From NCBI GenBank assembly GCA_964016885.1, contig OZ024749.1, forward strand, positions 29,264,001-29,328,000: 64,000 nucleotides of DNA. The letters are read 5' to 3'. This DNA comes from Eledone cirrhosa (lineage: Eukaryota). A program made the position numbers and the translations under genes. Positions within the stretch are counted from its first letter, which is position 1, and each line of letters starts with the position of its first letter. Positions 3,311 through 51,848 of the stretch are shown here, piece after piece. Under the pieces are notes generated by a model, which worked only from the letters and a program-made list of their open reading frames with translations, was not told the DNA's origin and searched no databases.

Positions 3311-3329
3311 TATATATATATACAAATAA

Positions 3330-3945: not shown

Positions 3946-4064
<119 letters not shown>

Positions 4065-5400: not shown

Positions 5401-5444
5401 ATAGATACACAGAGAGAAATCGGTGTAGTTAGATAGATAACTTT

Positions 5445-25017: not shown

Positions 25018-26346
25018 ATGTCTGCCAAGATGTCATCTGTATGGAGTATAGTGTTATCAAGTATGTATATCAGTTTGCTCTTCTTAGCTCAACATTCTTT
25101 TATTGCTAATTCTGCTGACACTACTATGCCACCAGATTACAAGATGTCACCAGATTACGACAAGATGTCACCAGACTACGACAAGATGTCACCAGATTAT
25201 GATAAGATGCAACAATACAAACATCAGCTTTCTTTTCCAATTAATGACTTCACTTTAAAAATATTTCAACAACTTGTTGAGTCAAAGACAGGAAACATAT
25301 TATGGTCACCATTCCTAGTTAGTATGAGTCTCGCATTTATTCAGATGACTGATAGAAAAGCCTCTGCAGAGAAATTCCAATCTCTGATCTATCCTTCCGT
25401 ATCTTGGGAATTATTCCATCAAAGTTATACAGAATACCTAAAAACTCTCCAAGATGTACCAAAGTTCCAACTTTCTAATAAATTATATATCGACCCAGTT
25501 TTACTTCCTCAAATCAACACTAACCTTAGCAGATATTATTTCTTGGAAATAGATGAAATTCATCCTAGAACTATTGGTAAACTAAGTGAGAAGCTACATA
25601 AAAACAAAATCACCAACTTCATGGCATTTGGCAAGACAAATCAAGAAATGTTAGCTGTGTTGGTGAACAGCCTGCATTTCCAAGGATCTTGGAAACATCA
25701 GTTTAACAGGAAGTTTACAATGAAAGAAAACTTCTATGTGACAGAGACACAAGTGGAACCTATAGAAATGATGTATACCGAAGATTATTTCAGTATGAAA
25801 TCAGATGAACGTCTTAGCTTTAGGAGTTTAGAGATACCCCTGGTTGGAGACAGATTTAGTTTCTATATAATTCTTCCTGATGATCTTGAAGGAATTACAA
25901 CAATAGAAAACAAACTAACGTCACGATTGTTATGGCAAATTATTGCCAATAAATCTCCTCCTAGGAACGTTGCTTTGATTTTACCAAAGCTCCAGACGAA
26001 ATCTAATTTTACTTTTCAAGACATTTTATTCAAAGAAAAGATTAGCAGTGTGTTTGATCTGGAAAGTAACAATCAAACAAACCCAGACACACATTTAATT
26101 CATGAGCTACACCAAGGTTTTATCAATATCAATGAATTTGGAATAACAAGTAACCCTGCCTCTATGAGTAAATCAAGTCATTTGAGGGAAAAAAAGGCCA
26201 AATTTGATACATCTTTCACTGTTAATCATCCATTTTTATACTTTGTTGTTGATAAAACTTCTTTTATGATTCTACATGTGGGCAAATATACCAAGCCTGA
26301 AAGTGGTATGGTACAACAACCACAACATAACCATGATGAGCTTTGA
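25018..26346 (+). CDS. Serpin-family protein, 442 aa, with signal peptide and C-terminal HDEL ER-retention signal; CDS in one exon
   Basis: Serpin motifs NILWSPF, LVNSLHFQGSWKHQF, T...FYV, MM, LEIP, FYIILP, LPK, ININEFG, FTVNHPFLYFVVDK...ILHVGK. Hydrophobic N-terminus. A splice acceptor (ttttccag, ending 25005) just before the ATG implies an upstream non-coding exon. Confidence 0.95.
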   Translation: MSAKMSSVWSIVLSSMYISLLFLAQHSFIANSADTTMPPDYKMSPDYDKMSPDYDKMSPDYDKMQQYKHQLSFPINDFTLKIFQQLVESKTGNILWSPFLVSMSLAFIQMTDRKASAEKFQSLIYPSVSWELFHQSYTEYLKTLQDVPKFQLSNKLYIDPVLLPQINTNLSRYYFLEIDEIHPRTIGKLSEKLHKNKITNFMAFGKTNQEMLAVLVNSLHFQGSWKHQFNRKFTMKENFYVTETQVEPIEMMYTEDYFSMKSDERLSFRSLEIPLVGDRFSFYIILPDDLEGITTIENKLTSRLLWQIIANKSPPRNVALILPKLQTKSNFTFQDILFKEKISSVFDLESNNQTNPDTHLIHELHQGFININEFGITSNPASMSKSSHLREKKAKFDTSFTVNHPFLYFVVDKTSFMILHVGKYTKPESGMVQQPQHNHDEL

Positions 26347-28404: not shown

Positions 28405-28467
28405 TTATTCCAATTTCAAGTCATTGATTGCTTTCATAATTTCATTGTACTTGGATACTTTCTCTAT
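28405..28467 (-). CDS. EIF2A: eIF2A last coding exon ([20 protein letters not shown])
   Basis: Acceptor tttcag; TAA at 28405-28407; AATAAA on - near 28272-28281. Confidence 0.9.
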   Translation of the reverse strand: MEKVSKYNEIMKAINDLKLE

Positions 28468-31400
28468 CTGAAATGGAAATAAACAAATATATCATCAATA
28501 ATCAATCAATCAATAATTTATTTTATTTATTTAACTCTTAACGTCCTGTACCACATGAAACCACATTAGCAAAACATTCTTGAAAACTATATACAAAACA
28601 CTGAGTCCACCCTGTAAGGTCGTTGTGTTGGTGACACCACAAAAAGTACCCAGTTCAGTCAGTTCGTTGTTTTGGTGCCACGACAAAAAGTACCTGGTCC
28701 ACCTTGTAAAATGGTCATCTTGGTGCCAAGATAAAAAGCACTCAGTCCGCCTTGTAAAGTAGTCATGTAGGTGACATGATAAAAAGCACCCAGTTCACCT
28801 TGTAAAGTTGTCATCTTGGTACCACAATAAAAAGCACCCAGTTGACCCTATAAAGTGAGCATGTTAGTGTCACAATAAAAAACACCCAGTCCATGCTGGT
28901 TGGTGTTAGGAAGGTCATCCAGCTGTAGAAACCAAGCCAGAAACAGTTCTGTATAAGCAAGACACAGTCACCTGATCTGACTTGTCTCACATCAGGACAA
29001 CTCATCTAACCCATGCTAGCGTGGAAAATGGACGTTAAACGGTGATGATGGCTGTCATCTCCCACTATCTCTCTCTCTCCAATCCAATGTCCAAACTATC
29101 CTTACCTGGCATTTATCCAGAGTTTTCCCAGATTTCTGTTCTTCCTTCAGTTTATTGATCTGAGTAAGTTTCTGGGAAGAAATAAAAAACACAGAAATTT
29201 CCATAAATATAACAACAGCATCCTAATATACAGTTTAACATAGTGCAGCAATAATACAGATTGTACAATCACAAACACACACATACAATCCTATCACATG
29301 CATACCCTCACACCTCATATATAATCCTATCATACACATACAATCTTATCACATATATACACACAGACATATAAATATATATATAGCCTCATAACATGGC
29401 AGGCCATCTAACCCATGCAAGTATAGAAAATAGACATTAAACAGTGGTGGTGAAAGTGGTGATGATGGAGATGTTGGTAATAATGATGAAGTTGTTGGTG
29501 AGGTTGTTAATGATGATGAAGATGTTGATGATGGTGATAATAGTTCTAGTTATGTAATTTTACCTTCTTTAAGTTCTTTATTTTCTTACTTTTATCACCA
29601 TCTCCTGCTTCAGAATTGGTTTTCTTCTCAACAGTGACTGGTGCTGGGTCAGAGTTGTTGGCTTGTTGATTCTTAAGTAAAAGACAAAAAAAAAAAAAGA
29701 CTTCAATGGCTATTCCACAACCCCTCTGGTATTGTTGCCATGAAAATACACCCAGTACACTCTCTAAGATAGTGCTTGTGCTATGATAAAATACACCAAG
29801 TACACTCTGTAGAGTGGTAGTGTTGGAGCTATGAGGAAATACACCTAGTACGCTCTGTAAAGTGGTAGTGCTGGTGCCATGAAAATATACCTGTAAGGCA
29901 GTAAGTATTGATGCTATGATAAAAAAGCAACCAGTACACTTTGTATGGTGGTAGTGCTGGTGCTGCAAAAAATGTTCCCAGTAAATCCTGTAGGGGGTAG
30001 TGCTGGTGTTATGATAAAATGCAACCAATACACTCTGAAGTGGTTGGTGTTAGGAAGAGCATCCAGCCATGAAACCATATAGAAAACAGAATTCATGAGA
30101 GCTAGACATGGTCACCTGACCTGTCTAGCCCCATAACCCATGCAAGTATAGAAAATAGACGTTAAAAAATGGTGATGTTGATGATCATGATTCCAGTTAT
30201 ATAATTTTACCTTCTTTGAATTCTTTGTTTTCTTATTTTTCTCACTATCTCCAGTTTCAGAATTGGTTTTCTTCTCAACAGTGACTGGTGGTGCTGGGCC
30301 AGAATTGTTGGTTTGTTGATTCTAAAGTAAAAGGAAAAAACACAAGAAAAATAACTTTAACTCTTTAGTTACTAATCCAGCCAAAACCAGCGCTGGTTCT
30401 ATGAAATAAAGCCACCCATTTTTAAAGTTTCCAATTTAAATTAAAATCTTTCAACATAATTTTATATAAGAACCTTATATTAAGTTACTATCTTAGTAAT
30501 GAAATAATTAATACTTTTAGTAAATCCCTCAAAATTCTTCATTAATTAATTAAAATACGAGTGTATTTCATTAGAAATGTGGTCATGAAAGAGTTAATGA
30601 TCATTTCAATGGTGTTTGTCACCATTTCTCATAGATACAGACATGGCTGTGTGGTTAAAGAGTTCACTTTGGAACTATGTGGTTTTGGGTTCAGTGTCTT
30701 TTACTATAGCCTCCACTTGACCAATGCCTTGTGAATGGAATTTAGCAGTTAGAAACCCTGCTTCTATTATCCCCTACCATCTTGTCTTGGAGTAGATAGA
30801 TCAGAACAGTGGAGCAATAATAGTCACTGTTATTAAACTCAACTGATGAATGGATTATTTAGTGAACTAATATAAACTGAGGTGAAACTCAACTAGTGGT
30901 GATGGTGTAGATGGTGGTTGTGTTGGTAGTGGTGGTGGTGGTGATACTGGTTGTGCTGATGGTTTAGATAGTGATGGTGGTTGTGCTGATGGTTTAGATA
31001 GAGATGGTGGTGGTGATAGTGTTGGCGGTGCTGGTAACATGGAAAAATGGACATTAAACAGTGAAGATGATGGTGGTGCTCCTAGATATATAATTACCTT
31101 CTTTGAATTCTTTGATTTCTTATTTTTCTCACCATCTGCTGGTTCAGGATTAGTTTTCTTCTCAGCAGTGACTGGTGCTGGGTCAGAGTTGTTGGTTTGT
31201 TGATTCTAAAGAAACAGAAAAAGACAAACATAAGAAAAAAATCCAACAATTGTTCCACTGCACACCCCCAACACTAACCATGCCACCTCCACTATCACAC
31301 GCTAGTAGCTATCTCTCCACACCTGTGTACACCCCCTCACCCATCCCTCTCTGCTATCACATCTTAACTATTCTCATCATCACTACACTATCAGAGGTTA

Positions 31401-32914
31401 CTGCATCACCTCCCACCACACTTGCCATACAGCCATGACATCAGACTTACACTGTAAAGTGGTTGGTAATTGGAAGGGCATCCTGCTGAAGAAAGCTTGT
31501 CAAACAAAGAGTAGGGAGGACCTTTGAGTTGTGCCAAAAACTCGACAGTCTCTCTAGTGCTGGTGATCTACAAAATAAATGCACCCAATACACTCTGTAA
31601 AGTGGTTGGTGATAAGAAGTGTATCCAGCCATAGAAAGATTGCCAAACAAAGGGTTGGGAGGACCCTTCAGTTGTGTCAAAGAGATGACAACCTCCCTAG
31701 TGTTGGTACCAAGATAAGATGTACTCAGTAGAACATGGGACCCTATGTAAAGGAGATGCAGGCTCCTGACCTGTCTGGGAGGTCAGTGGCTCCACTTCAG
31801 TAGTGTGAAGACCCGTGCAACCCTTGCTAGCAGGAAAAAATGAACCTAAATGATTATGATGGAATACATATATAATCTGACCAATCCAAGCATAGAAAAT
31901 AGATGTTAAACAGTGTTGATAATAATGATGATAGTGGTGGTGGTGGGGGTGATGATGCTAGGAATAATGGTTGTAGCGATGGTGGTGGTGGTGGTGATAG
32001 CTGTGATGGTGATGATGTTCCCAGATATATAATTACCTTCTTTGGTTTCTTATTTTTCTCACCATCTTGTTCAGGATTAGTTTTCTTCTCAACAGTGACT
32101 GGTGCTGAGCCAGAGTTGTTGGTTTGTTGATTCTAAAGAAACAGAAGACAAAAACATAAGAAAAATAACTTTAAAAATTGTTCCACTGCTGTTTGTCACC
32201 ATTGACTACCCTACAGATAGGGGTGTTAACCCTTTCATGATCACATTTCTAATGAAATACTCTCTATTTAAATTAATTAATGAAGAATTTCAAGGGATTT
32301 ACTAAAATTATTCATAATTTCATTACTCAGATAGTAACTTAATGTAGGATTCTTATATAAAATTATGATGGAAAATTTTAATTTAAATTGGAAAACTTAA
32401 AAATAGGTGATTTTATTTCATAGAACCAGCCCTGGTTTTGGCCAGGTTGGTAATTAATGGGTTAAAGGTGGTGAGTTAGAGGGGTGACCTCCAGTAGTAT
32501 GGAAAGCTACTGTGATAATGATTGCAATGATGATAAATGTAGTGATGGTGATGTTGGAAGCAATCGTAAAGGTAATGGTGGTAGTGGTGGTTGTGTTGGT
32601 TATGATGATAATGGTGATGATGATGATGATGATGTTCCCAGATATATAATTACCTTCTTTGAATTCTTTGATTTCTTATTTTTCTCACCATCTCCTGTTT
32701 CAGGATTAGTTTTCTTCTCAACAGTGACTGGTGGTGCTGGGCCAGAGTTGTTGGGTTGTTGATTCTAAAGAAAAGGAAAAAAACTTTAAAGACCATTCCA
32801 CTGATATTTGTCACCATTTCACAGAATGTTATTAATGTATTGAGAATGTAATCGATAGCAGTTACGCAGCTCCTAGTCTCGACAAAATACATCCATTCTG
32901 CCATGCATGCTCAG

Positions 32915-32947
<33 letters not shown>

Positions 32948-35900
32948 ATGTATGTTTATATATGTGTTTATATATATATATCTAACCCATGCTAGCGTGC
33001 AAGATGGACGTTAAACGATGACGATGATGATGATGATGATGTATGTATATGTATATATATATATATAGATATACACATACATATATATATATATCATCAC
33101 CATTTTACGTCCATTCTTCCACACTAGCATGGGTTAGACGGGTTATCCTGTTGTAGGCAGTGCCTGGTCTTGCTGTGTGTGTATATATGTATATGTATAC
33201 ACATATATACATATATACACACATATAATCTAACCCATGCATGGAAAATAAACACAAAACAGTGACGATGGTAGTGATGATGATGATGATGATGATGATG
33301 GTGGTGAATCCAGATATATATAATTATATAATTACCTTCTTTGAATTCTTTGATTTCTTATTTTTCTCACCATCTCCTTGTTCAGGATTAGTTTTCTTCT
33401 CAACAGTGACTGGTGGTGCTGGGCCAGAGTTGTTGGGTTGTTGATTCTAAAGAAACAGAAGACAAAAACATAAGAATAATAACTTTAACACCATTGACCA
33501 CCTTACAGATGGGAGTATATTAAGGGTGGCCGCCAGTAGGATGGTGGATGCCTCTTCCACGGGTCCCAGCAACCAATATGTCATGGGAGAGTGAGGGTGG
33601 AACATCATTAGTGCAGAAAGCTACTGAGATAATAGCTAATCGCGATATGACTGGTGTGTCAGGGTTATAGTGAGGGATTTATCAAGAGTAGGAAGTTGGA
33701 TGCCTCTTCCACAGGTCCCAGCTACTGATGTTTCTCTGCACTTTAATCAGCTGTCATCTTTCATTCACATCACATGTCCATACCAGTGCAGTCTTCTCTC
33801 TTGCTCACTACATCCAATTCCTCTTATGTTCACTTATACAAAGTCATTCATGCACACTAACATTACACATCCATCGGAGCATACTCACTTCATTTTTTTC
33901 TAGCCGTCCCAGGTCTTCTTCAATCAAGGCCCATGTTTCACTGCCATGTAACACTGCAGTTCACACGTGTCATACAGTTTATCCTTCACTTGAAGAGAGA
34001 CCCCCCTTTGTTGTCAGCAGAGGTCCCATCACCCTAAACTTCTAGCCTGTTTTTACACTGGCTATCACATTTTCAGAGCATACTCTTCTACCTAGGTAAC
34101 AAAAGCTGTCATCAACTTCTAAGGAATCTGCCAGGCCACTGAGGGTATTAATTTCATGTCAGCTTTTAGTGCTTACTTCTTCTGCACATCTGCCACTTAT
34201 AAAATCGATGTTCTCCATTAACTTGCTAATAATCCCACACCTCTTGTGTCCAGGAATGTACAAGCTAGATTTGGTCACCTGATTGATCTAGTCCCAGAAT
34301 GTGACAGCCCATCTAACCCATACAAGCTTGGAAAATAGACAATAAATAGTGATGGTGGTGATGATGATGATAGATATTGGTTGTGATTATGATGATGATG
34401 ATTCTGGCTGTGTCATTTTACCTTCTTTGGATTCTTTGTCTTCTTATTTTTATCAACATCCGTTTCAGAACTGGATTTCTTCTCAACATTGACTGGTGCT
34501 AAGCCAGGGATGTTAGGTTGTTGATTCTAAAGGAAAAGGAAAAAACAAAATAACTTTAATGATCGTTCCTCTGTTGTTTATCATCTCTTAGATACAGGCA
34601 TGGCTGTGGTGCGGTATATATCTAGTTATTGTGAGTGGTGTGTGTGTGTCTTTCTGTTTGTTTATGTCCCTTAAAATAATTAGGCTTGAAAACATAAGTA
34701 CATGGGGGTTGATATAATCAGCTAAACCTTCTTAATGTGGTGCCCCAGCATGAAACCAGTTAAATAATAACAGAATCAAGTTACCTGTTTCTGAGCTTTT
34801 GACTTCTTATTACTCTTCTTTCCAGTGTCGGCAGAATAATCTGTTTAAAAGATTTCAAACTTTTGTAAATTTGATCTCATCAGAAAATTTCAATTTATAC
34901 TTCTGAAACAATTTAACCCTTTTGAAACCAACCTATCGGACATTGCTTCTTCCAATTCTTTAATCCTTTAGCATTTAAACCGGCCGTATCTGGCCAGAAT
35001 TCTCTTACCTCTTTCTCTTCAAACCAGCTGTAACCAGCCACTCGTACTGACATTAGGGTATGGTTCTCAAAGTAAATAATATCAAAAAAATCTTGTAGAT
35101 TCGATATTATTTGAGATAAAGCCTTTACCATGAAAATATAATAGTATATATAAAGTAATGTAAATGCTAAAGGGTTAATACAATTAACCTCAATTTTAAT
35201 TTAGAACCTGCCCTCATAATCTTATGTATAAACATTCTAATATGTTCCAAACACACATTTAATTCTTTTGAGACCATCCCACCAGACACAGTTTCTGATC
35301 TTTGATACAAATAACCTCAGGTTTAAACTGTTTAAATTTAATTTAAAAAACCTTCTTCTTCTTCGCTCACTTATTCCTGGGAGAGTTGTGGTGGCAGTCT
35401 TCAAGAACTTCTTCCAGTAGGTCTTGTCAGAAGCTACTGTCTCTATTTCATCCGGCTGGATCCCCAAGATGTTATCCAACCATCTTGGGTCTCCTGCCAG
35501 TTGGTTTTGCCCATAAAATCTGTCCAGTGATTCTTTTGTGAGTCATTCTAGCCAATTTAAAGCCCTCCATCATAATTTTATATAAGAGCATTTTGTTATG
35601 TTTCAAACACAAACTTAAACCTTTTGATACTTCATACCAACCCACCAGAAACCATCCATGTTCTATGAAATAAAATTTGCCCATTTTAAAGTGTTCATAC
35701 TTATATTAAAACCTTTCATCATAATTTTATGGAAGAACCTTTGTTAAGTTATGTTCCAAAAATCTTACTAATAGAAAAGTTTTGATTATTTTCAAAATTA
35801 TCTGAAACACATTGGTAGCGTCTTTCAGTTGAAATATGGCCAGGAAAAGGTTGAAGAAAAAAACTGAGAAATGTTAATACTTACTAAGACCTGGGATTTT

Positions 35901-38900
35901 CTTATTCGAAGGGGGTTCAAATTCATGTAACTTGAATTCTGAAGCAGGCTGATCCCGAGCATGTGGGGGGCGATACGCTGCAACTGGTTTCACTATAAAA
36001 ATATACAATTTTTTAAAGATATTTTAGACTGTATTGACAATGACTAAGATTATTCCATGTAATGATTTGATATTTTAAAAAATATAAATGCAACTGCAAG
36101 TACAGTTACAAACAGTATTTATGGAAAGCAACACATGACTTACATACGAGCTAACATTTTAGACATATTTGATATTTCTTAATATAAATGCAACCGCAAG
36201 CAAAGTTACAAACAGTATTTATGGAAAGCAACATCTGATTTACGTGACAGTCAAAGGATGAAATAAAAATATTATAAACCCCAAAAGTGACTTATCTACA
36301 AATATATATATATACAGTAGTTATAAAATGTAGTTTAGTTTAAACACCTGTCTGGGCTGGTAGTGAAGACCCTACTTTCTTATAGGCGATAGGTTTCACA
36401 GGAAATTTTCCTTCCATATCTGGCATCCACAATGATTCCCATAATTCTTTGCCAGATGCTATATCCAGCTCGGCCAAAATAGTGCCAGTATAATGCCATA
36501 TTTTATACCTGAAATGGAATTAAGTAAAAATTAAAAATAAAATATTGAAAGTTTTGTAGAAAGATTCAACTTTTAGAAATTACAATATTTTGAAAGAATA
36601 ATTGAGGAATATTTTATCTTTTTAATAAACAACAACAATAACAACAAACATTTTAAGGTGGGGGTGATAGACTTCATACTTATGATGGGGTCTTAGTTGA
36701 AGATATGGAATATTTCATACATACAAAAAGGAGAATAGTGACACACAGGGATATAGTGTATCTATTGTAAACTAGATACACATAAGATACAGTGTACCTA
36801 TTGTAAACCTGATACACACAGGGATATGGTGTACCTATTGTAAACCTGATACACACAGGGATATGGTGTACCTATTGTAAACCTGATACACACAGGAATA
36901 TGGTGTACCTATTGTAAACCTGATACACACAGGGATATGGTGTACCTATTGTAAACCAGATACACACAAAGATAGTGTACCTATTTTAAACTAAACACTC
37001 AGGGATATTGTGTGCTTATTGTAAACCAATCTACTACCTTTAATAATAATAATAATGGTTTCTGATTTAGGCACAAGGCCAGCAATTTGGGGAGAAGAGA
37101 AAGTCGATTAAATCGATCCCAATGCAATGCTGGTGCTTTATTTATCGACCCCATAAGGATGAAAGGCAAAACTAACCTCGGCAGTATTTGAACCTAGAAC
37201 ATAAAGGGCCACGTAACTCTATGCCACGAAGCATTTGGTCTGATGCTCTACTGATTCTGCCAATCCATATTAATAACAATGGTTTCTTATATAGGCACAA
37301 GGCCAGCAATTTGGGGGGAGAGGACAAAGTCGATTATATTGTCCCCAGTGCATTACTGGTGCTTTATTTTATCGATCCTGTAAGGATGAAAGGCGAAGTT
37401 AACCTTGGCGGGATTTGAACTCAGAAAATAAAGGGACGTAACTCTAGGTTGCAAAGCATGGCATCCGATCCTCTACTGATACTGCCAAATAACGATGATA
37501 ATAGTAATAACAATAATGTATTTACCCATTGCCAACACGAAGTCTAGGAGCCATTGTTGCTGTAATAAAGTGTACCCCATCAGGACACCAACAGAAATAA
37601 GTTGTATCCATGGCTTTAGTAGAACTGATTATTTTCTGCTGTTGAACATCCCAGAATTCCAGGTCACCTTGGAGATTACCAAATCCAGCCAGGCACAAAA
37701 GTTAAACAGTTAAGTACAAATAATTAGGGATTCTATTGTCACAGGTACCCATATGATCCCTGATGAAGTCATATGGGTACCCTCATGTTAATGTCAGCAT
37801 GGACATGTTGGATGTAAGAATGATGAGTGTGATGGTGATAGGGGAGGGAGGTGATGCTAATTATGATAATGGTGATGGGTGTGGTAGTGATGATAAAGAT
37901 GACGGTGGTATGATGTTGATTATGATGATGGTGAAAATGATAGAGGTAAAGATGATGATGGCGGTGAAGGTGATGGTGGTGGTATGGGGGATGTGATGAT
38001 GATGATGGTAGTGGTGGTATGGGGGGAATGATTATTATGATGATACTCCTAAGGCAAGCCATTACTCTGACCCCCCCCCCCCTTTATGTAAAATATAATT
38101 GAAAGAGCAAAGGATATTGTTTCCCTGAGGATTATAAAAAGCTGAGTTCCTGGCTGCTGTTCCATAGTCAAAGACTGGATCACATTTCAGGTTATAGACT
38201 GTAGCTTTGGCTGGCATAACTGGTGGTCACTGGTTAAGGAAGAAATACTACTGGCAGAACAGCAGATTATTGGAATAGATGAAAGCAGAATGTAGGAATA
38301 AATCATTGAAATATTTCAAAAGCATGTCATGAGGTTTATTAATGAGAAAGACCTAAATAATACAGTTAATACACCTACAAACTACCTGCATCAGTTGTTA
38401 GCTGTCGGGACATTGCATCCTTCAAATCATCCATGCTTCCTGAAATTTGCCAACACTACACCTGATATTCCCCCTCCATAAACACGCACACATGTATCTG
38501 TGTGTATATCATGACTCATACACAGTTCACTTTCCTAATATGTGTACATTATTCTATGTACTATTGTGAGGGTGGTGAATTGGCAGTATTGGTAGAGGGT
38601 CGGATGCCATGCTTTCTAGCATAGTTACGTCCCTTTACGATCTGAGTTCAAATCCCATTGAGGTTAACTTAGCCTTTCATCCTTATGGGGGGTCAATAAA
38701 ATAAAGTACCAGTAATGTACCGGGTATTTGTTGGCCTTCAGCCAAAAGTAGAAACAATTATTCTCTGTACTATTCATGCACCTTTGATGATTTGTAGTGC
38801 ACCTGAGCACTGTACACAATAATCTCCATTATTATTATAAGAAATGACAACAAATTTATGAGCATGTGGTTAGAATGTCTCAGGAAACAATCGCTGGACA

Positions 38901-41078
38901 GATTTTACAAGCAAAACCAACCAACAAGAGATCCAGGAGTAGACCCCAAGCAAGATGGTTGGATAACATCCATGAGCTTGGCTGGTCTCGTTTGGGGATC
39001 CAGCCAGATCAGTTGGAGACGGTTGCTTCTGACAGGACCTGCTGGGAGGGTTTGAGGACTCTGCCCCCAACAACCCTCTCAGGAATAAGTGGGAGAAGAA
39101 GAAGAACCTCAAACTGTTTGGCCACATCATACACTCAAATTGTGGTCTTTCTCTCTCTAAAATCTGTTTTTTGGGGGAGCAGGTATGATTCTAGGACAAA
39201 TAAACTAAGGACATCCCCAATGGTAGAGAGAGAGACCAGATCCTAAGATGGTCTCAATGGAAGAAATATGTTAATGATGTTTTATATAAAGTTCTTTTGT
39301 CACAACCTGTGACATTATCAATGGCTTTGTGGTTCTCATGCACATCCCCATCACCAGCAATTACACTCCATCTTCATTGTCTGTTTCTCAGAGCCAAAAC
39401 CAAAGTGAAATACAACCAGAATGTGTGTGTGTGTGTTTATTAGCTGTGTGTGTGCTTATTGGCAGTGTAACTAAAATACCACAATATCTGTTTCAACACC
39501 ATATCTTTCAAATTAAAGAAAGAACCTTACAAAACAAATACAAAAACATTATTTAGAAGAATGCAGAGAAAGGATACAGCCATAAACCACACAGAACTGG
39601 GTAGAATTGGGATGCCATTCTACACAATATACAGGACCATCTTTGGCTGAAAGTAAAATAATTTATATAAGTTTACTCAAATATCAGAAACAATAAAATA
39701 TCAAAGATCTATACTTTAATGGTTTGTTCCCACTCAGGAAAGAATAGCTGGACAGATTTTACAGCCAAAACTAACTGGCAGGAGACCCAGGGCTAGAAAC
39801 CCAAGCAAGATAGTTGGATAATATCCATGGGCTCATCTGGTCTCGCTTAGGGATACAGTTGGATTAGTTGGAGATAGTTGCTTCTGACAGGACCCACACT
39901 GAAAAGAGTGTTTAAGGACTCTGCCCCTCAAGAATAAGTGGGTGAAGAAGAAAAAGATTTATGCTTCATTCATCACCATTACTCCAGCTCCCATTATTAT
40001 AATTGTCAAATTTTAAACCTTTTCATGTTGGCAGTTATATCATCATCATCATTTTATGTCCCCCTTTTCCATGCTAGCATGGGTTAGACAGGTATTTTCC
40101 AGCACAACATTCCCCTGTTTGTTGTGTTCCTTTATCATCTCTGTTCGCTTCAGCAAGCAAAGATCATTTCTCATCACCTTTGCCCAAGTCTTCCTCTACT
40201 ACAACTACCTTCCACTAGGATTTCTTGGAAGGTTAACCATTTCAATTACCACCTTTCTAATAAAATACACTGTATTTTAATTAATTAATGAAGAATTTTG
40301 AGGGATTTACTAAAATTATTAATTATTTCTTTACTAAGATATTAATTTAATGTAAAGTTATTATATAAAATTATGTTGGAAAATCTTAATTTGAATTGGA
40401 AATTTTTAAAATGGGTGGTTTTATTTCATAGAACTAGAGCCGGTTTAGTAACTAAAGGGTTAAATAAACAAGATAAAGACATTAAATGATGATGATAGAC
40501 ATTCAAAAGAATTTAGGAAGAAATTCTAGAAAAAATAGTTTTGTATCATAAAGCCAGGGATGGTGTCAAGTAATTTTGTATCTTAAGTGTTAGTTAACCT
40601 TTGAAAAAGATTATATAATCAATGCAAATATTTACCTCTGGGCACAAGGCAACCTTCACCTTTTATGCTAAGGTAATGAAGCCCTGTCTCACCATAGTAA
40701 GACTTATCTGATGTTTCAGTCGATGTAATTACAAGCAAACCAGTACCTGTGGGCAAAAGTAGAAGAGAAAGAAATGAATAGATTATTGGAGTTTTCCTAC
40801 TATATCTAGCATTAAACTAATATATTTTTTCATTATACTGAATTGTTTGCTTTGTTGTTTGTTTTTTTTGCATATATGAGGGTTGGCTGAATAGTTCATA
40901 GGTTGACTATGAAGGAGTGATACTAGAGCAGTGAAATCTTGCATGCATTAATTTCAACTCTTATTAATAATTGCATTATTTATTTCTGGTGACTATGTTG
41001 AAAAATAAACTTCATTAAGTCATTCCATGAGAGTATCTTCGTCAGCCTATAAACTTTTCAGCTGACTCTTGTATGTAT

Positions 41079-41123
<45 letters not shown>

Positions 41124-44100
41124 AGAGTCAGCTGAAAAGTATATATATAGTGTTGGTATCTTTAAGAAGCAGAATGTTAATAATATGAACAATAATAATT
41201 GTTTCTACTTTAGGCACAAGGCCAGCAATTACCCAGTGCATTACTGGTACTTTATTCTATCGACCCCGGAAGGATGAAAGGCAAAGTTAACCTCGGTGAG
41301 ATTTGAACTCAGATCATACAGGGAGGTAACTCTATGCTTCAAAGCATGGCATCCGACCCTCTACCGATACTGCCAATCCACCGCCTTGACAATAATAATG
41401 ATATATATGTATGTATTATGTGTGTGTATATTATATATATATATGTATACTTACCAGCTTTATTCCAATACATTGTTGTTTTATCAGCTTTAAAAAAGCT
41501 TTTATTTGCCAGGGGGCATCCATTAAAGTTGGGATATTTGAAAATTCGAACATTTGATGGTTGGCCCTGGAAATATAAGAATGTTTGAGGAATTTGTACT
41601 TTACAAACAACAAACCTTTTAACTACCTAAATACACTACCACCACTACTACTACTACTACTAACACTACTACTGCAACAACTATCATCATCACAAGTAAT
41701 ACAACCACCAACACTACCACTACCACCCTCACTTCTACTACAACCACCAACACCTACCATAGCCACCACTACCATAACTTCTACTACAACCAAAACTACA
41801 ACTACTACTAAAGAACTATTTCAAAATAAAATCTCACCTGTCCACCCCCAGTCACCACCACCCACAATATCAAACATAACATAACATAAGAAGATCCTAA
41901 AACTTACCTTACTGCCAGGAATATAAATAGCAACATGGTCACTCTTAGAAAAGCCATATTCAGAGATTTTGGCAGCATGAAGACGTGTCTTTGGTGAATC
42001 TGGAAGAAATTCAATATATATAAAATTATTCCTATACTTTTTCAATATTTAAATATTATTTTGTTTTTGTTTTTGTTTGAAATTGAAAAAAAAAAAAAAA
42101 AAAAAAAGAAAACCCCTGGAATTTGGGGCTCATATCTCTACAGGTTTAGATTGGCCTGCTACGAGACTTCTTTCATGGCTTCCAACCACTTTACAGCATG
42201 TACTGGGAGCTTTTTTCATGGCACCAGCACTACCACTATACAGCATGTACTGGAAGCTTTTTTTGTGGCACCAGAACTACCACAATACAGCATGTACTGG
42301 GAGCTTTTTTTTGTGGTACCAGCACTACCATCTAAGAGAGTGGATTGAGTGCTTTATGTCATGGCACCAGCACTACCACTTTACAGCACGTACTGGGAGC
42401 TTTTTTCATGACTGCAGCGCTACCACTATACACCATGTACAGGGAGCTTTTTGACATAACACCAGCACTACCACTATACACAGTGAACAAGGTTCTTTTT
42501 TCGTGGCACCAGCACTATCACTATACAAAGTGAATTGAGTGCTTTTTGTCCTGGCACCAGGACTACCACCTTACAGGGTTACTTAGCTGATTTTTCTCAA
42601 CTATTATTATACTCATTTGCATTAGGACACACACATTTCGAATTTCAATAACAACAACAATAATAATAATTGTAAACAAACCAAAGTTTCCATTTTCATA
42701 AAATTCCACATCGTTGTTATGGAGACGAACCATTAGTTTGTCATCTGGGGTCCAACTAGGTTTCCTTGAAAGAGAAAATAAGATAAGGTTTTCAATAGAT
42801 TTTCTTTACAATCAATTGACAAGATCCCAGACCTCATTTGCTTACTGAGTGTGGTGGACCTCGTCAAATTGGACCAAGGGAACAATGTTTCCATTGGTCT
42901 TTCTATTGTTAATACTATCTAGAGTGGACCTTGTCAAATTGGATCAAGGAAACAATATTTCTATTGGTCTTTCTATTGCTAATACTATCTACTGGTCACA
43001 ACATAAAATAAAATATCTTGCTCAAGGACATAATGCACCCCCCCCCCCCCCCCACCCCACACACACACTTTACAGAGTATATTAGATGCATTACTTCTTG
43101 ATAGAAATTTTTATGGAAAATTTTTAATTTAAATATGTATATTTTAAAAGTGGCTTTTTTATATCATATTTGAAAAGTGGGAGGGGGGGAGGGACGTAGT
43201 TAGAAAAGGGTTTTGTATCATAGAAAGAGAGAGGAAATATTTAGAAAAGGGTTAAAACTTACCAATCAGACATCCTTTTGTGGAAGAATCCTTTCAATAG
43301 TTTACCTGTAGCGGTTTCCCAAATGCAGAGGTTAGGAACATCTTTCTTTTGACCTAGGAAAGAAAATTAGTTCTATATATAACAATTATTTCTGATTTAG
43401 GCATAAGGCCAACAAATTAGGGAGATGGGAAGGTCGATTAAATCAATACTAGTGCATTACTGGCACTTTATTTCATCAATCCCGTAAGGATGGAAGGAAA
43501 AGGTAATCTTGGCAGGATTTGAACTCAGAATGTTAAGGAACGTAACTATATGCTACAAAGCATTTTTTCTGACACTCTATCGATACTGCCAATTCCTCAA
43601 TAAGAATCTTTATTGTACATAAATATCGTCATCATCATCATCATTTAACATCTATTTTCCACGCTAGCATGGGTTAGACGGGAATTGTCCCACTTGAGGC
43701 AAGATTGGTCGGGTGACCATATATATATATATATATTTTGAGTTTATGTTGGTTGTATACCAACACCTCAGTATGCAGGCTGGAGCACTCGACGAAGTGC
43801 GCAGGTTGGTTTGGTTACTCCGGAGTAGTGTAAAATAAAGTTAAATAAAAGTCAAATGATTAAAATTTAGCTTCGTTTATTACTGCTATATATATTTCAG
43901 TGACAGCCATCTTTGGCTGTGACCTCTTCAGGCAGTTTGAATTAGTATGGTATAGACAAGTACATATGTTGTTTAGGTGTATAATATTGTCAATACTCTG
44001 ATATGACCAGTTCCTTGTTGGGTTGTTAATTCACTGAGGAACTGGAGTCATATCCATATGACTCCAGTTCCCCAGTGAATTAACAACCCAATAAGGAACT

Positions 44101-44600
44101 GGGCATATCAGAGTATTGACAATATTATACACCTAAACAACATATGTACTTGTCTATACCATACTAATTCAAACTGCCTGAAGAGGTCACAGCCAAAGAT
44201 GGCTGTCACTGAAATATATATAGCAGTAATAAACGAAGCTAAATTTTAATCATTTGACTTTTATTTAACTTTATTTTATATATATATATATATACATATA
44301 TATGTGTATGTATACATATTTATATGTACATACAAGGGTATGCTGAAAAATTCATAGGCTGATTATGAATGAGTGATGCTAGAGCTGTGAAATCTTGCAT
44401 GCATTATTTCAACTCTTATTAATAACTGTATTACTTCTTTCCAGAGACTATGTTAAAAACGTAACCTCATTTGGTCATCCCACGAGAGTATCTTGGTCAG
44501 CTTATGAACATTTCAGCCGAACCTCGTATATATACAGGGTCCCAAAAAATGTATACACACTTCAGCATTCTAATATATGTATATATTTCTGTGGGACACC

Positions 44601-44644
<44 letters not shown>

Positions 44645-47600
44645 AACATCATCATCATCGTTTAATGTACATCTTCCACACTAGCATGGGTTGGACAGTA
44701 TATATATACATATATATACATCATCATTTCATTTTACGTCCACTTTTCCCTGCTTGCAAGGGTGGGACGGGAACTGATTCTGGCTTGATTTCTACAGCTG
44801 GATGCCCTTCCTAACACCAACCTCATTTACAGTGAGTGCTGGGTGCTTTTTTTCCGTGGTACCTCCACGACCACTTTGCAGTGGAATGATAGGGACCCCA
44901 GTCCCTATCATCTCATTTCTACAGCTGAGTAAACTGGAGCAATGTGAAATAAAGTGTCTTGCTCAAGGAAACAACACATCACCCGGTCTGAGAATTGAAC
45001 TCACAACCTTTCGATTGCAAGCCCAATGCTCTAACCACTAAGCCATGTGCCTCCATACATGTGCATACATACATGTATATATAAATGTAGCTGTATAGAG
45101 CAATGTGTACTTACTGGATATATCGGCAGATATAAGATATGTTCCAAGTGGTGAAAATGAAAGGCCAGATATTTTAGATTTCTCAATTGTGATGACCTTC
45201 TTATAACCACTGGTCTTCATGACAGTGATGCTGAAATAGTAAAATACCATTATTAGAATTACAACTACATAACCAATGGTGAGATAGAGACATCGTTGAT
45301 AGAGAATTCCTGCTTCTGGTATGAATGAAAGTATTTTAGAAACCCCATCATGGATTGTGGAGAGACTTTGTCAGGAATGTTTGACCATGGTCACAATGAT
45401 GTGAACACTTTAAAACAAAGTTTCTCTTCATAACACCAGGGGTAGCTTCAGACAGTTTGATAACAAAAAAGGTTAAGATTTAACTGTTTTAATGCGATGA
45501 CATTAATACTTTCATAAAAGTCATAGAAATCACTAAAATAAAGTGAAATAAACGAAATTCCTGGCAGGAAACTTCTATAAACAATGTCTGTCAACTGTCT
45601 CATGTGATTCACAACATTAATGATTTGTGAGGAAGTCACTCGACTTTCAAGAAGACAGCTAGATTTAAAACCCTGATATATCATCTCTGTAATGTTTTTG
45701 GTTACATGATCATGGCTGATATATACTGGAGACACATACTAAATGAATCATCATCATCATCATTGTTTAACGTCCATTTTCCACATTAACATGGATTAGA
45801 CGTTCTGTCTCGTTGTAAGACAAGCCAGGTCAGAGGACCATGTTTTGTTCACCCAGAACTGATTTTGGCTTGGTTTCTATGCCCTTAACCCTTTAACATT
45901 TAAACCGGCCGTATCTGGCCAGAATTCTCTCACTTCTTTCTGTTCAAACTGGCTGCTTGTACTTATGTTAAGGTATTGTTCTCAAAATAAATAATATCAA
46001 AATCTCATAGATTCGATATTGTGAGGTAAAGCCTTTTCAGTGAAAATGTAATAGTATATAGAGAGTAATGTAAATACTAAAGGGTTAATATCTATATTGG
46101 CTAAAACTATCAAGGTGGTCAATAGGCTGTCTAATACAATAAGATGACAGGAATTCATCTAAAGCAAAGTAACATCTGAATTCTTACCCTTCTTCATCGC
46201 ACGAGGCAAAATACTGGCCATTCAAAGAGAAGGCCATGGCACGACATTCCGAGTTTCCATCCCTTGAAGAAAGAAAATAAGAATATATTGATGAAGGTAA
46301 AACTTAACTGTTTCCTTACCAAATATCTTTCAGCACATTCTTGTATGAACACTAATGATTTTGAATTAATTTTGAAAATAACCAAGAATGAAGGTATTTA
46401 GTAATATAACTAACTTTCTCAATATTAAGTTGGTGTTTGGAACATAACTTAATGAAAGTGTTTATATAAAAATTATGTTGGAAGGTTTTTAGATAAATAT
46501 ATATACTTTAAAACAAAGAGTTTTGTATCATAGTACCAGAGTTATTTGGAACATAAAGGTTCTTTCATAAAATTATGATTGAAGCTCTTTAGATTAATAT
46601 AAATACATTAAAACAAATGGTTTTGTATTGAAGAACAAAGAGTAGTTTGGTATCAAAAGGTTTTAACTCTTTCATTACCAACTGAGCCAAAACCAGCCTT
46701 GGTCATATGAAACAAAATTATCCATTTGAAAAGAGTCGTATGTTAAATATAATTTTCCAACATAATTTTATATAAGAACCATAAGTTAAATTAGTAATGA
46801 AATAATTAATAATTTTAATATATATCCTTAAAATTCTTCACTAATTAATTAAAATAGAGTGCATTTCATTAGAAAACAAATTTTCTAACAATGGCAAAAT
46901 TATTTGAACAGTGGAGGAGATGCCTTGCAATATTTATTCCAGTCTTGATGATCTGAGGATATTGTTCCCTCTCCTCCTCCCCTTCCTAGTCTTGGAGACC
47001 CAAGAAAAGGGCCATCAGTATTGCTCTTTCTTCACTGACTAAAGAGTAAAACAAAAAATATCTTCAGCAAGCCAAACCCTTAACCCTTTTGGTTCTATGA
47101 AAGAAAACCACCCATTTCAAACAATTCCCATATAAATTTATATCTTCCAACATGATATTATACAAGAACCATATTTTAAGTTAATATATTAGGAATGAAA
47201 TAATTAATCATTTGAGTAAACCTTTCAAAATTCTGCATTAACTAATTGAAACGGAGTATACCTCATTATAATTACAGTAACGGAAGGATTTATCTCACAT
47301 ATATTAGGATCCTTGTAAAATATTTTACATACAAAGATTACTTGTACACTATAATTAGCATATAATAATGGTTTCTGCTTTAGGCAAATGCCACAAATGT
47401 TTTGGGGGGAGGGGAAAGTCGATTAAATCGACCCCAGTGCATGACTGGTACTTTATTTTATTGATCCTGAAAGGATGAAAAGCAAAGCCGACTTCGGTTA
47501 CATTTCACCTTAGAATGTAAAGAGCTGGAAACAAATACTACCTAACATTTTATCCAACACTTTAATGATTCTAGCAACCCACTGCTCTAAATGTGCAATA

Positions 47601-50600
47601 AAAATAGTATGGCATGGTCCTGTAAGTTCTGATGGAGTCGTAGGCACACCATAGTGGCATACAGCATTTCTTGGGCACTTAAGCCTGACAGAAGAACCAA
47701 TCCCTCTCCAGGTCAATAAAAAATGAGAACAGTTAAATGAAAAGGAAAAGTAAATATAATAAATATAAACTTGCCCTCGAAATACTTCTTTAGATTTGTT
47801 TGGAGCACCTTGAAGGACCCAAACTCCATCTGTACCACGCACTGGAAACATAAAAAATTCATTTATGAAGTAAAAGGTCAATAATTTTTTTTTTAAAGCC
47901 AGTACAATGCGGTAGGAAAATACAAAGGGCAAATGACAAATGAAACAAAACAATTTGAAGTAATTTTTTTTTTACACAGTATATTTCAGGGTTATTATCT
48001 TTTCAAACGTGGGACTGAAACAGTTCAAGACAAAACCATTAGAAAACTCTGAAAATGAAGTAGTGTAGTATTAACTACACTACTCTATTTTCATTTATGA
48101 AGTCTTTCTAAATTTATTGTTGTTTAAAGACACTAGATTAACCCTTTAGCATTTAAACTGGCTGTATTTGGCCATAATTCTCTCACCTCATTCTGTTCAA
48201 ACCAGCCACAACTGGCTGCTCATAACGATGTTAAGGTATTATTCTCAAAATCAATAACATCATCAAAATCTCGTAGCTTTGATATTATGTGAGATAATAC
48301 AATAGTAAATATAGACTAATGAAAATGCTAATAGGTTAAAGACATTAGATTAACTTATAAAGATGAAAACTGAAGGAAGGATGATTCCAAGTGGTTAATG
48401 GGCTGGTTTCATGATGATAAGGTTGTGGGTTTGATCCCTAGATAAGGCGGGATGTTGTGTCCTTGAAAAAGGTTCTTCATTTCATACTTCCACAGTTCAC
48501 TCAGGTGAGAGAGAAAGAAATGAATACCAACAACAATCTTTCCAAGTGAAAGTATTTACTATCAGCAAATCCAGGGCCTTCTCACTCCCGTTGAAGGAAC
48601 CTCTTCCTGGTTGACCTTGACTGCTGTTTCCTATCTCTGGCTATACAGGGCCATGTAAGGCAAAGATATCAGGTCAGATCATCGCGCCATCTGGTTCTTC
48701 TTCACTGTTTTGGTGTCCACACTGTTGCTCTAACAGTCTACCTATTGTCCCTGAAACAAGAGATCTAGCCAACCCATTTATGTTTGCCCTTCTTGGTGGT
48801 CTTGATTATGTCCTTTACTCCAGTCAGCTGTCAAATCCAGGTGTTGCTCTTGTTGTCACGTAAGGTGATGCCGAGCATGATTTGCTCCATTTTACATTGG
48901 GCCACTGCAGTGATCTTCTTTAGTGTCTATGTCTCACTTCCATAAGTCATTACCAGCAGAACATATTTATTAACCCTTTAGCATTTACATTACTCTATAT
49001 ATATTATTGTATTTTTGTGGTAAAGGCTTTATCTCACATAATTATCTCGCACAATATCGAATCTATGACATTTTGATATTATTTATTTTGAGAACAATAC
49101 CTTAATGTCAGTATGAGCAGCTGGTTATGACCAATTTGAACAGAAAGAGGTAAGAGAATTCTGGCCGGTTTAAATGCTAAAGGGTTAAACAATTATATCC
49201 CATATATCCTTCCATACTTGTCTGTCAATCCACGGGGACTCAGTATTTGTCAGTTGCTCCAAATATGATCCATGTTAATGCTAGGACACTGGTCTTTATC
49301 TGTGAGTATCATAGTTTTAGAATAGACTCACTGTGTATCACCACATGTTGTTGGAGGTGACTAAAATGAGGGGGTAGGGTGGGTGTGAAAGGAAGGACAA
49401 CTGGCTGTAAAACATTGCCTTAAAAACACCTGTCCAATACATAACAGTTTGGAAAAGTGGGGCATAGTCAACAATAGATCTCAAATGAAGAAAATGAAAA
49501 TACCCAGTCAAATCCACAGAGATTCATCGAGTATCATCATCATCATCGTTTAACATCCATCTTCCATGCTAGCATGGGTTAGACGGTTTTGTTCCATTTG
49601 ATGCAGGAATGGTCGGGAGACCATGTCTCGCTCATACGGAAATGTCTCTGGCAGGTTATTTTACAGCTGGATGCCCTTCCTAACACCAACCACATTTACA
49701 GTGTGGACTAGGAGCCTTTTACCATGTCTCCTACACAACACCTTACAGTGTGGACTGTTGTGTCATCGACACAGTGGACAGAACGGAAAAGAGAGAATGG
49801 GGTGTGGGTGGGGTGTACATTGGGTATATATACTTGATGAATATGTGGATCTGACTGGATATTTTCATTTTGTGAAGGCGCATGGCTGAGTGGTTAGAGA
49901 ATTGGATTCACAATCGTGAGGTTGTGAGTTCGATTCCTAGACCAGGCGATGCGTTGTAACTTTGAGCATGACACTTTATTTCACGTTGCTCCTTCTACTT
50001 GGAGTTGCAACTGATAGATAGTATTAGCAATTGGAAAGACCAATGGAAATATAGTTTCCTCGGTCCGATTTGAAGAAAGTCAATCGACTGTCGATATACA
50101 TATATATATATACAGGGTGTCCCCAAAAATGTATGCACACTTTGATTACCTGTACAGGCAATATTTATTAGAATGCTGAAGTATGTATACATTTTTTGGG
50201 GGACACCCTGTAATTATATATATGTATTAAAAACAACACGAGGTTTCTCATTAAGGCTTTTATTGATTCTACACAGTTACGGCCGTTTCATAGATGGGTG
50301 GTTCAGGGTCCATGTTATTATAGACCAGACTCCAACCCAATCTGTTCATCAGACTTGTTAATCAAGAAAAACCAAAACCTCATATATATATATACACACG
50401 TTGGGGTTAGGATGAGAGCAAAGGTTACGGTTAGAGTCGGTTCATGTGTGTTTATGTATGAATATGGTCGGAAAATGTGCAATAAATCCAGTGAATTGGA
50501 CGAGATATTTTCGTTTTCTTCAAACCAGATCTATTGTCCGTGATACTCGAGAAATGGACGTAAAAACAAAGCTTTAGCCATTACATAATTAAATACACAT

Positions 50601-51421
50601 CATTTGTTTGATGGATACAATGGAAAAGGTTGTAACATATGGAAATATTATTAGGTAGAATAACCAATTCTACCTTTGTCACTGTGACTATGTGTCTACG
50701 TATGTATCTGTGTATGTCTACATATATTCATATATATGTTTGTGTGCGTGTGAATATATGCACCTGTGTCTAAGTATGTGTATGTGTGTTTAAATACGTC
50801 CATATATGTGTGTATGAGTGCGTGCATGTGCAGTGCGTGCGATTTCTATGTGCCTGTGTATGTTTTTTGTATGTGTGTTTACATATGTCCATGTATGTAT
50901 ATGTGTGTGTGTGTGTGTGTGAGTGTGAGTGAGTGAATGCACTTGCCAGTGCGCGTGAGTGAGTGCGTGCATTTGCCAATGCGTGTGAGTCTATGAATGT
51001 ATGTGTACGTGGGCGTCTATATATGTGTTAGCTACATATGTATGTATTAGTTACATATGTGTATGTGTCTACGTATGTATGTATATATTTCAATGCGTGT
51101 CTATATGTCAGTACATATACGGCAATCGAGCCGGCGAGATAATCCCCGTGCTTAACCCTGATTTTCAGCTGTCGACATTTAACTTAGACTGATATCACCG
51201 AGAAAATGATGAACGTCACATAATCACACTTATTTTCTTGTATTAGAGTCCGATCTATGCTTATTACTATTTTATTTACACACCTGGTCGAACGATTTTA
51301 CAACTTTTGCAGAAACAATTTGATATTATATATATGATTCCTAATTTTTTTTTTCTCTTTACGCTCCCCAACCTCTCTCTCTCTCTATATATATATATAC
51401 ACGCGTGCGCGCCGCACACAT

Positions 51422-51469
<48 letters not shown>

Positions 51470-51794
51470 AGTAAGGAGAGAAATACGCATAAATGTGTTC
51501 AAATTATAAGTGATGTAAATAGAGAGAGAGAAAGTGGTGAGTGTAAAGAGAAACAGAAATTAAGGAATCACATTTTTGATGCAAAAAAAATGATCGTAGA
51601 GGCATTTGTAAATGTTATATATATATATAATGTATATATATATATATATATACATAAATTTTAACGTTATAATAAATATAATAATTGATAGAATTGTTAA
51701 GAGTAAATATAATTGAACTGGCGCAGAAGTCATCAATAAGGTTCGATTGATTAACGAAATATAAACGGTTACTCGAAAGCATGTTAACACAGAA

Positions 51795-51848
<54 letters not shown>

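Follow-up and report, generated by a model that had tools for sequence, protein, structure and literature searches.

Two consecutive introns with U12-type signals, GT-AG followed by AT-AC, around exon 11 of the eIF2A gene of the octopod Eledone cirrhosa

The analysed window, a stretch of 64,000 nt of Eledone cirrhosa contig OZ024749.1, harbors the eIF2A gene on its minus strand. A gene model that starts with the ATG at 52046 confirms the numbering of exon 11 and of introns 10 and 11 given in an earlier note on this DNA. The region around exon 11 comprises the following features (window coordinates):

28405..52046, minus strand: entire coding span of eIF2A, composed of 17 single-copy exons and seven tandem copies of one exon
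39578..39646, minus strand: exon 10, 69 nt (PF08662 positions 58-79; equals the 69-nt gap of the spliced contig)
39569..39577, minus strand: intron 10 donor GTATCCTTT, 0 mismatches to RTATCCTTT
38220..39577, minus strand: intron 10, 1358 nt, phase 1, GT-AG, U12-type signals (in the spliced contig, acceptor directly visible, donor deduced from the length of exon 10)
38233..38241, minus strand: predicted branch site of intron 10, TTCCTTAAC, perfect TTCCTTRAC, 13 nt between motif and intron end
38118..38219, minus strand: exon 11, 102 nt, phase 1-1 (PF08662 positions 81-113; both ends exact in the spliced contig)
38109..38117, minus strand: intron 11 donor ATATCCTTT, 0 mismatches to RTATCCTTT
37701..38117, minus strand: intron 11, 417 nt, phase 1, AT-AC, U12-type signals (junction exact in the spliced contig)
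37709..37716, minus strand: predicted branch site of intron 11, TACTTAAC, 2 mismatches to TTCCTTRAC, followed by 8 nt to the intron end
37526..37700, minus strand: exon 12, 175 nt (PF08662, E 2.8e-19; human eIF2A structure 8DYS, E 6.5e-21)

Exons 1-12 of eIF2A encode 373 amino acids that are free of stops and align without a gap to the Octopus bimaculoides protein (91.4% identity); the conserved protein is restored at the junctions, as the earlier note had claimed. Taken singly, exons 10, 11 and 12 pass the cut-off of PF08662, and their profile positions are consecutive, which assigns them to eIF2A; the last base of exon 10 is the first of the codon that follows the conserved YG. A homologue search using exon 12 alone returned five proteins. 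Exon 11 is positioned between two introns of minor type; the remaining 21 introns of the gene have an ordinary U2-type appearance, including one with GC-AG termini.

The U12-type donor consensus is RTATCCTTT (human examples: GTATCCTTC); it is matched in full by the donors of introns 10 and 11, the other 21 eIF2A introns being off the donor motif at 3-6 of 8 positions. The branch motif which the earlier note had placed 13 nt from the AG of intron 10 is indeed perfect (38241-38233) and offers candidate branch A residues at -16 and -15, those of intron 11 being located at -11 and -10; both branch-to-3' distances are short and fall at the limits of the 11-13 nt given as optimal for U12 introns (PMC3584512). 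A distinct polypyrimidine tract, which U12-type introns lack, is not clearly missing: pyrimidines account for 13 of 20 positions in either intron (10-19 in the other 21 introns, median 17, with 6/21 at 13 or fewer). According to repeat depth, the middle of intron 10 contains high-copy repeats. In their donor consensus, branch motif near the 3' end, matched termini and phase 1, the two introns correspond to the U12-type introns described by Turunen et al. (PMC3584512), phase 1 being the commonest minor-intron phase (PMC10639083). In contrast to the canonical type, the branch site of octopod intron 11 is two mismatches off the motif, a weak score that is equalled by 4/21 of the other introns of the gene.

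The splicing of this region is documented by a contig of public run X4 (record 24; 1462 nt; the four pieces listed are free of differing letters and of gaps), in which 38219-38118 corresponds to record positions 734-835 and the sequence from 37700 onward to record position 836 onward. This alignment directly shows the acceptor of intron 10 and the AT-AC junction of intron 11; the intron 10 donor was deduced from the gap between record positions 664 and 734, whose 69 nt equal the length of exon 10 (exon 10 is not among the pieces listed). Introns 10 and 11 are removed at the junctions listed above; the earlier note would have been refuted by a cDNA with different, canonical junctions, whereas record 24 joins exon 11 to exon 12 at the AT-AC ends and has the expected acceptor of intron 10. 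The kind of run X4 is unrecorded, its transcript-like nature follows from the spliced contig only, and the evidence comprises one contig of one study; none of the runs found to contain the locus was recorded as RNA. Depth in X4 was 327 on the spliced contig and 3.87 on one piece within intron 11, which is not a measure of retention, and the joints tabulated were repeat joints, with the splice junctions not among them.

The view that the motifs reflect chance or an assembly artefact, and that the mRNA uses canonical junctions, could draw on the donor motif count in the window, which is by itself at chance level (2 occurrences of RTATCCTTT versus 2.29 expected; 72 of 100 shuffles reached 2). However, both matches in 128 kb of strand begin at the first base of the two introns required by homology (approximately 3e-10 for two pre-specified sites), and the exact junction in the spliced contig refutes this view unless the contig is misassembled. 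In the genomic-type contigs of runs X1-X3, which may derive from the source sample, the four signals are all covered, and the longest covering piece contains no more than one differing letter. Among the in-frame junction candidates within 60 nt (75 for intron 10 and 29 for intron 11, the model included), those listed above scored highest; for intron 11, the best stop-free GT/GC-AG alternative reached 2640 compared with 3006 for AT-AC, and there is no canonical alternative that restores the protein. An origin of these signals by chance or misassembly is therefore hardly conceivable.

One or both introns might instead be degenerate or hybrid, with the major spliceosome doing all or part of the splicing; intron 11 would then be a U2-type AT-AC intron, or intron 10 a GT-AG intron in the course of becoming U2. 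In an AT-AC intron of U2 type, the donor is U2-like and does not show the U12 consensus; such introns were reportedly described by Wu and Krainer in 1997. The weak branch site of intron 11 would be compatible with this possibility, as would the easy conversion of GT-AG U12 introns (PMC3584512) and the gene model of the snail Nucella, whose C-G-E at the intron 10 site is not U12-like and suggests a non-U12 donor. Against it stand both donors, which agree with RTATCCTTT at every position (a full U12 match that does not conform to the U2-type AT-AC identity of intron 11), the perfect branch site of intron 10 at 13 nt from its end, and the same donor translation kept in five other species (see below); a hybrid nature is judged very unlikely. 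Going by their sequence signals, introns 10 and 11 are likely removed by the minor (U11/U12) spliceosome. The genome of O. bimaculoides possesses U11, U12, U4atac and U6atac genes and 401 minor introns out of 114,266 (PMC11347168 Tables S4 and S7).

As deduced from established U12 biology, U11/U12 would recognize donor and branch site together, with the 3' end being set by the distance from the branch A; this would explain why the closer AG in intron 10, 3 nt past the branch motif, is passed over in the spliced contig. Retention of intron 10 or intron 11 leads to a stop after 9 or 18 codons, respectively, and unspliced RNA would therefore yield no full beta-propeller. Skipping of exon 11 would be in frame but joins a GT donor with an AC acceptor; as GT-AC terminal combinations are disfavored (PMC3584512), inclusion of exon 11 is the predicted outcome of the mixed pair.

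The two intron sites were followed in other animals by a read-through tally of 315 proteins, 284 of which passed the anchor score (31 were dropped). Both sites were normal in 257 proteins; five contained x-I-L, ten were without exon 11 (seven Trichinella entries forming one cluster, Daphnia, Sanderia and Nucella), and the 12 others were mostly divergent sequences, in addition to an Elysia marginata deletion and one partial fish model. The tripeptide x-I-L, i.e. the translated U12 donor, was present in five of the six read-through cases of public gene models: at the intron 10 site as C-I-L after YG in the limpet Patella caerulea and the spider Araneus ventricosus, and at the intron 11 site as Y-I-L or N-I-L after GN/GT in the scale insect Parthenolecanium corni, the sea spider Nymphon striatum and the snail Candidula unifasciata. 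As a background, I-L was read after 0.5-0.8% of all GT or AT dinucleotides of the window and after 0/21 of the other donors of the gene. According to these protein models, each species being informative at one site only, orthologous introns would be present, and introns 10 and 11 are likely old and common to snails, spiders and insects. The deletions in Daphnia, Sanderia, Trichinella, Spodoptera and Elysia marginata are hints that predictors avoid the region and are silent on the intron type. Since the read-through N-I-L-C resembles the real protein, the intron 11 donor might have arisen from duplicated coding sequence; the resemblance was judged a likely coincidence, because any phase 1 AT donor reads x-I-L and the first residue is Y in two arthropods. 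The mis-modelling by standard gene predictors anticipated in the earlier note was found in other invertebrates, with eIF2A models broken or missing sequence here in Patella, Araneus, Parthenolecanium, Nymphon, Candidula, Nucella, Daphnia, Sanderia, Elysia marginata and Trichinella, but three cephalopod models were correct.

Among vertebrates, three Logan ORFs with 87-95% identity to the eIF2A of a lizard, a shark and a frog matched unbroken over 183-194 aa across both sites, and their flanks were non-homologous as expected for single exons; both introns appear to be absent from vertebrates. The site comparison across metazoans proposed in the earlier note thus yielded U12-like read-through in molluscs and arthropods, whereas the vertebrate ORFs were uninterrupted, as far as protein models and ORFs indicate. 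The same protein motifs flank each junction in vertebrate EIF2A, but the gene is missing from two human minor-intron lists, the human/mouse tables in question including EIF3K, AOX1 or DERL2 (for PMC6800510, in the supplementary files searched). Jawed vertebrates would apparently possess one long exon over octopus exons 10-14, which likely arose after several neighboring intron losses. In metagenomes, none of the best 80 of 416 related stretches by coverage was interrupted at either site; these stretches resemble transcripts or intron-poor fungal genes and are uninformative on intron age.

A consecutive arrangement of minor introns is uncommon but already known in kind, and the statements of the earlier note that such introns are rare and usually single per gene went too far. 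Approximately 50 human genes contain two U12 introns (PMC3584512), minor-intron clustering is significant in 21/21 genomes (PMC7367187), and human DERL2, DERL3 (94-nt exon) and CCDC43 (59-nt exon) likewise comprise a short exon between consecutive U12 introns (PMC6800510 Table S3). For DERL2 and CCDC43, an intron spanning both is also tabulated there, i.e. annotated exon skipping, whereas the octopod skip needs a GT-AC join. As to the subtypes of the human pairs, the one DERL2 donor looked at was GT. The chance expectation was computed as approximately 1.1-1.4 adjacent minor pairs per genome like that of O. bimaculoides. In honeybee, Janice et al. 2012 (PMC3291851 Table S1, row 56) catalogue a U12 intron of the GT-AG subtype in gene 552764, the orthologue of Drosophila CG7414 (eIF2A); it is the single U12 intron listed for this gene, its position is not given, and neither an AT-AC intron nor a pair is mentioned there. 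A report of the eIF2A minor-intron pair was not found in the literature (no matches to EIF2A in the PMC10639083 text and supplement, the PMC11347168 supplement and the PMC6865273 text; none to 'eIF2' in the PMC2831892 text), and intronIC/figshare, MIDB, U12DB and IAOD may well already list both introns.

In summary, introns 10 and 11 are probably constitutive introns that are spliced at the above junctions, likely by the minor spliceosome, and that likely date back at least to the mollusc-arthropod ancestor. The pair would persist most likely as a result of low intron-loss rates in molluscs and not of a dedicated regulatory role; the survival of both introns across protostomes is also expected under selection. 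As proposed in the earlier note, the pair might represent a regulatory choke, here a selected one, in which slow or stress-sensitive minor splicing of successive introns limits the eIF2A output: splicing of U12 introns was reported to be slower by a factor of two to five, and there is a rate-limiting model (PMC3584512), the protein is truncated if either intron is retained, both positions are apparently conserved in molluscs and arthropods, and eIF2A is essential in Drosophila (bioRxiv 10.1101/2021.03.28.437419). However, the slow-splicing model is disputed, with Moyer et al. citing work that considers the rate difference too small to matter (PMC7367187), and Larue and Roy favor a neutral model of minor introns (PMC10639083). 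Whether eIF2A acts in stress initiation is likewise contested, no such role having been detected in HeLa cells (PMC12221301), and vertebrates apparently do without both introns. A selected choke is unlikely, and the pair alone is no demonstration of new regulation. Unlikely as well is the further-reaching scenario of a GT-AG/AT-AC pair ancestral in animals that has been kept as a lock on exon 11 together with a double sensitivity to the minor spliceosome, vertebrates having lost the whole intron block at once. Such a pair would be older than the cnidarian-bilaterian split, as the broken jellyfish model hints. Under such an ancestral lock, the mismatched subtypes would fix an in-frame, otherwise skippable 102-nt exon in the mRNA.

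With the probably constitutive and inherited pair of Eledone cirrhosa, a conserved gene is shown to carry a transcript-supported, mixed-subtype example of neighboring minor introns, which human-centred minor-intron lists have missed because vertebrates appear to lack both introns. The pair accounts for a recurring annotation error, the truncated or internally deleted eIF2A of several molluscs and arthropods, a jellyfish and Trichinella, and it offers a natural substrate for two questions: how an exon is defined with minor sites on both sides, and whether a mismatch of subtypes blocks exon skipping.

The window is animal DNA rich in repeats, and its minus strand bears a gene whose exons match consecutive positions of the Pfam eIF2A profile (PF08662) and which also matches human eIF2A in the PDB. 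The gene model was built by tblastn with junctions fixed by hand; its exons 1-12 encode 373 aa with 91.4%, 81.3% and 72.1% identity to the nearest proteins, those of Octopus bimaculoides, Argonauta hians and Acanthosepion pharaonis, respectively. The source is probably an octopod cephalopod.

eIF2A gene model around exon 11 (window positions)
39646-39578, minus strand: exon 10
39577-38220, minus strand: intron 10, phase 1, donor GTATCCTTT, 3' end AG
38219-38118, minus strand: exon 11
38117-37701, minus strand: intron 11, phase 1, donor ATATCCTTT, 3' end AC
37700-37526, minus strand: exon 12

Intron 10 carries TTCCTTAAC 13 nt and intron 11 TACTTAAC 8 nt from the 3' end. The U12-type donor motif RTATCCTTT occurred twice in the window against 2.29 expected matches and the branch motif TTCCTTRAC three times against 1.40, neither being in excess; the case for U12 donors rests on the position of the matches. 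Both donor matches coincide with the first base of the introns required by homology (10 and 11), and the other 21 eIF2A introns each show at least three mismatches. Of the in-frame donor/acceptor combinations lying within 60 nt (75 for intron 10, 29 for intron 11), the modelled junctions gave the top score when compared with five reference proteins. With its AT-AC ends intron 11 scores 3006; its best canonical pair free of stops drops 24 nt and reaches 2640. The weak branch site of intron 11, branch distances at the edge of the optimum and a pyrimidine tract that is not clearly lost count against inherited, constitutive minor introns; handling of introns 10 and 11 by the major spliceosome is judged very improbable.

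Elsewhere in the gene, a second perfect TTCCTTAAC (43532-43540, minus; within intron 4, some 180 nt short of the 3' end, no matching donor) was taken as chance. Intron 2 (46263-47774, minus) is GC-AG with donor GCAAGT, so that the gene has three non-standard introns. The intron 11 donor (38109-38117), if read through, gives N-I-L-C and thereby mimics the true I-L-C of exon 12 (37700 onward), for which reason tblastn runs exon 11 about four codons into intron 11; the resemblance is probably coincidental, though misleading to aligners.

Contigs matching the window were found in four public sequencing runs (all from one study, kind unrecorded). Those of X1-X3 behave as genomic DNA, cover all four signals and may represent the source sample of the window; in these runs, interspersed repeats of very high copy in introns 8-10 (38264-39127, 39704-41431) reach summed contig depths of up to 1e5-8e6. 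The fourth run, X4, is a different sample with a 1462-nt contig, the listed pieces of which are all exonic and without a differing letter.

Pieces of the X4 contig
window 40747-40636: contig 553-664
window 38219-38118: contig 734-835, exon 11
window 37700-37523: contig 836-1013, exon 12 onward

Since the exon 11 piece directly adjoins that of exon 12, the junction lies exactly at the AT-AC ends, instead of the canonical cDNA junctions named in the earlier note as its refutation; the start at 38219 shows the distal AG to be the intron 10 acceptor in use. The intron 10 donor was placed by length, because exon 10 is absent from the listed pieces: the 69 bases between contig positions 664 and 734 equal its length. 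This one contig shows that the spliced form occurs, not how large a share it makes up. The eIF2A minor-intron pair is real and transcript-supported: signals, frame and spliced product of the two consecutive U12-type introns proposed around exon 11 were all seen, and their removal would depend on the minor spliceosome.

Further downstream, one phase 0-0 exon is present in seven tandem copies (29564-34526, minus; 96-111 nt; 81-98% identical), all with AG/GT ends and open frames kept.

Tandem eIF2A exon copies (minus strand)
34526-34422, 33446-33336, 32764-32654, 32132-32037: copies 1-4
31205-31098, 30321-30211, 29671-29564: copies 5-7

Only one copy occurs in each of the three other cephalopod proteins; with one copy in use the protein would measure 556-561 aa, resembling its relatives, and with all seven 774 aa. 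By arithmetic, the X4 contig extends 22 nt beyond the first copy before it ends (position 1462), at a point where assembly would branch. Convergent with the eIF2A 3' end lies an uninterrupted 442-aa serpin ORF (25018-26346, plus; PF00079, E 1.3e-56) with a short motif repeated close to the N terminus and a C-terminal HDEL resembling an ER-retention signal. ORFs at 1056-7940 (minus), apparently split into several frames, are presumably from a non-LTR retrotransposon (reverse-transcriptase-like, 6162-7940; gag-like, 1056-2875), and 37-bp and 47/48-bp minisatellites occur at 36741-37027, 42185-42576, 28672-28893 and 29742-30044.

As the 80 of 416 metagenome stretches kept were uninformative on intron conservation, this was read at the protein level from errors in public gene models, not from orthologous DNA. 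At the intron 10 site, where conserved sequence ends, the Patella caerulea and Araneus ventricosus models continue with C-I-L (GT donor), the former terminating shortly afterwards, and that of Nucella lapillus with C-G-E, which is not U12-like; the intron 11 site is read as a terminal Y-I-L in Parthenolecanium corni and Nymphon striatum and as N-I-L-F-F, with the model continuing, in Candidula unifasciata (AT donor in each). The x-I-L signature, which results when a phase-1 U12 donor is translated, was thus present in five of six read-through cases (background 0.5-0.8%; 0/21 for the other donors of the window gene). Judged from these models, each intron appears to have left signs in both molluscs and arthropods, the pair being shown in no single species beyond the window. 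Daphnia, Sanderia (jellyfish) and Trichinella models lack the entire exon 11 region, a weaker hint than x-I-L; the expected mis-modelling by predictors was encountered, as read-through or deletion, in several other invertebrates. The Nucella model terminates in C-G-E-S-C at the intron 10 junction, which would fit a nearby U2-like GTGAG donor and a possible U12-to-U2 conversion. All seven scored Trichinella entries lack a stretch starting exactly at the intron 10 site, a gap that may mark an overlooked non-canonical intron; in several entries, eIF2A is joined to an elongin A-like gene.

Three ORFs from public Logan contigs (95% frog, 87% gecko and 90% shark eIF2A identity; 183-194 aa) show no break at either intron site and have non-homologous flanks; we read them as a single long vertebrate exon covering octopus exons 10-14. 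Neither the human U12 list of PMC6800510 nor the tables of PMC6717393 include EIF2A, as far as the available portions extend, with positive controls present. The honeybee orthologue of CG7414, the Drosophila eIF2A (bioRxiv 10.1101/2021.03.28.437419), is catalogued with one GT-AG U12 intron (Janice et al. 2012, PMC3291851, available part), so that eIF2A is already in print as an invertebrate minor-intron gene; the paper searches yielded no mention of the AT-AC intron, of the pair or of the apparent loss in vertebrates, though intron databases may list them. The statement that U12 introns are usually single per gene has to be qualified: about 50 human genes carry two (PMC3584512), which in DERL2, DERL3 and CCDC43 are consecutive, like the octopod pair (PMC6800510).

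According to the accessible text of PMC3584512, minor introns are recognised by U11/U12, branch-point distance sets the 3' end and GT-AC joins are disfavoured; introns 10 and 11 would likewise be recognised by U11/U12, and the 3' end of each would be chosen by how far it lies from the branch point. A relative, O. bimaculoides, possesses the machinery, with all four minor snRNAs and a total of 401 minor introns (PMC11347168). Computed retention leads to a stop after 9 (intron 10) or 18 codons (intron 11), and skipping of exon 11 keeps the frame but requires a GT-AC intron; because that join is disfavoured, the mixed pair is predicted to make exon 11 constitutive. A selected rate-limiting switch appears unlikely (rate-limiting control was envisaged in the earlier note). 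Selection could also account for the deep conservation of the introns, a point against simple inheritance. About 1.1-1.4 adjacent minor pairs per genome are expected without selection at O. bimaculoides density (assuming 90,000-110,000 adjacent pairs). In HeLa cells under stress, no role of eIF2A in initiation was found in the part of PMC12221301 available. As reported in the available portions of the respective papers, U12 introns cluster within genes generally (PMC7367187), minor introns often have major introns as neighbours (PMC8034651), and molluscs and arachnids are enriched in minor introns, the evolution of which is argued to be largely neutral (PMC10639083). Introns 10 and 11 are probably inherited, constitutive minor introns, a reading that we favor over both a selected switch and the major spliceosome.
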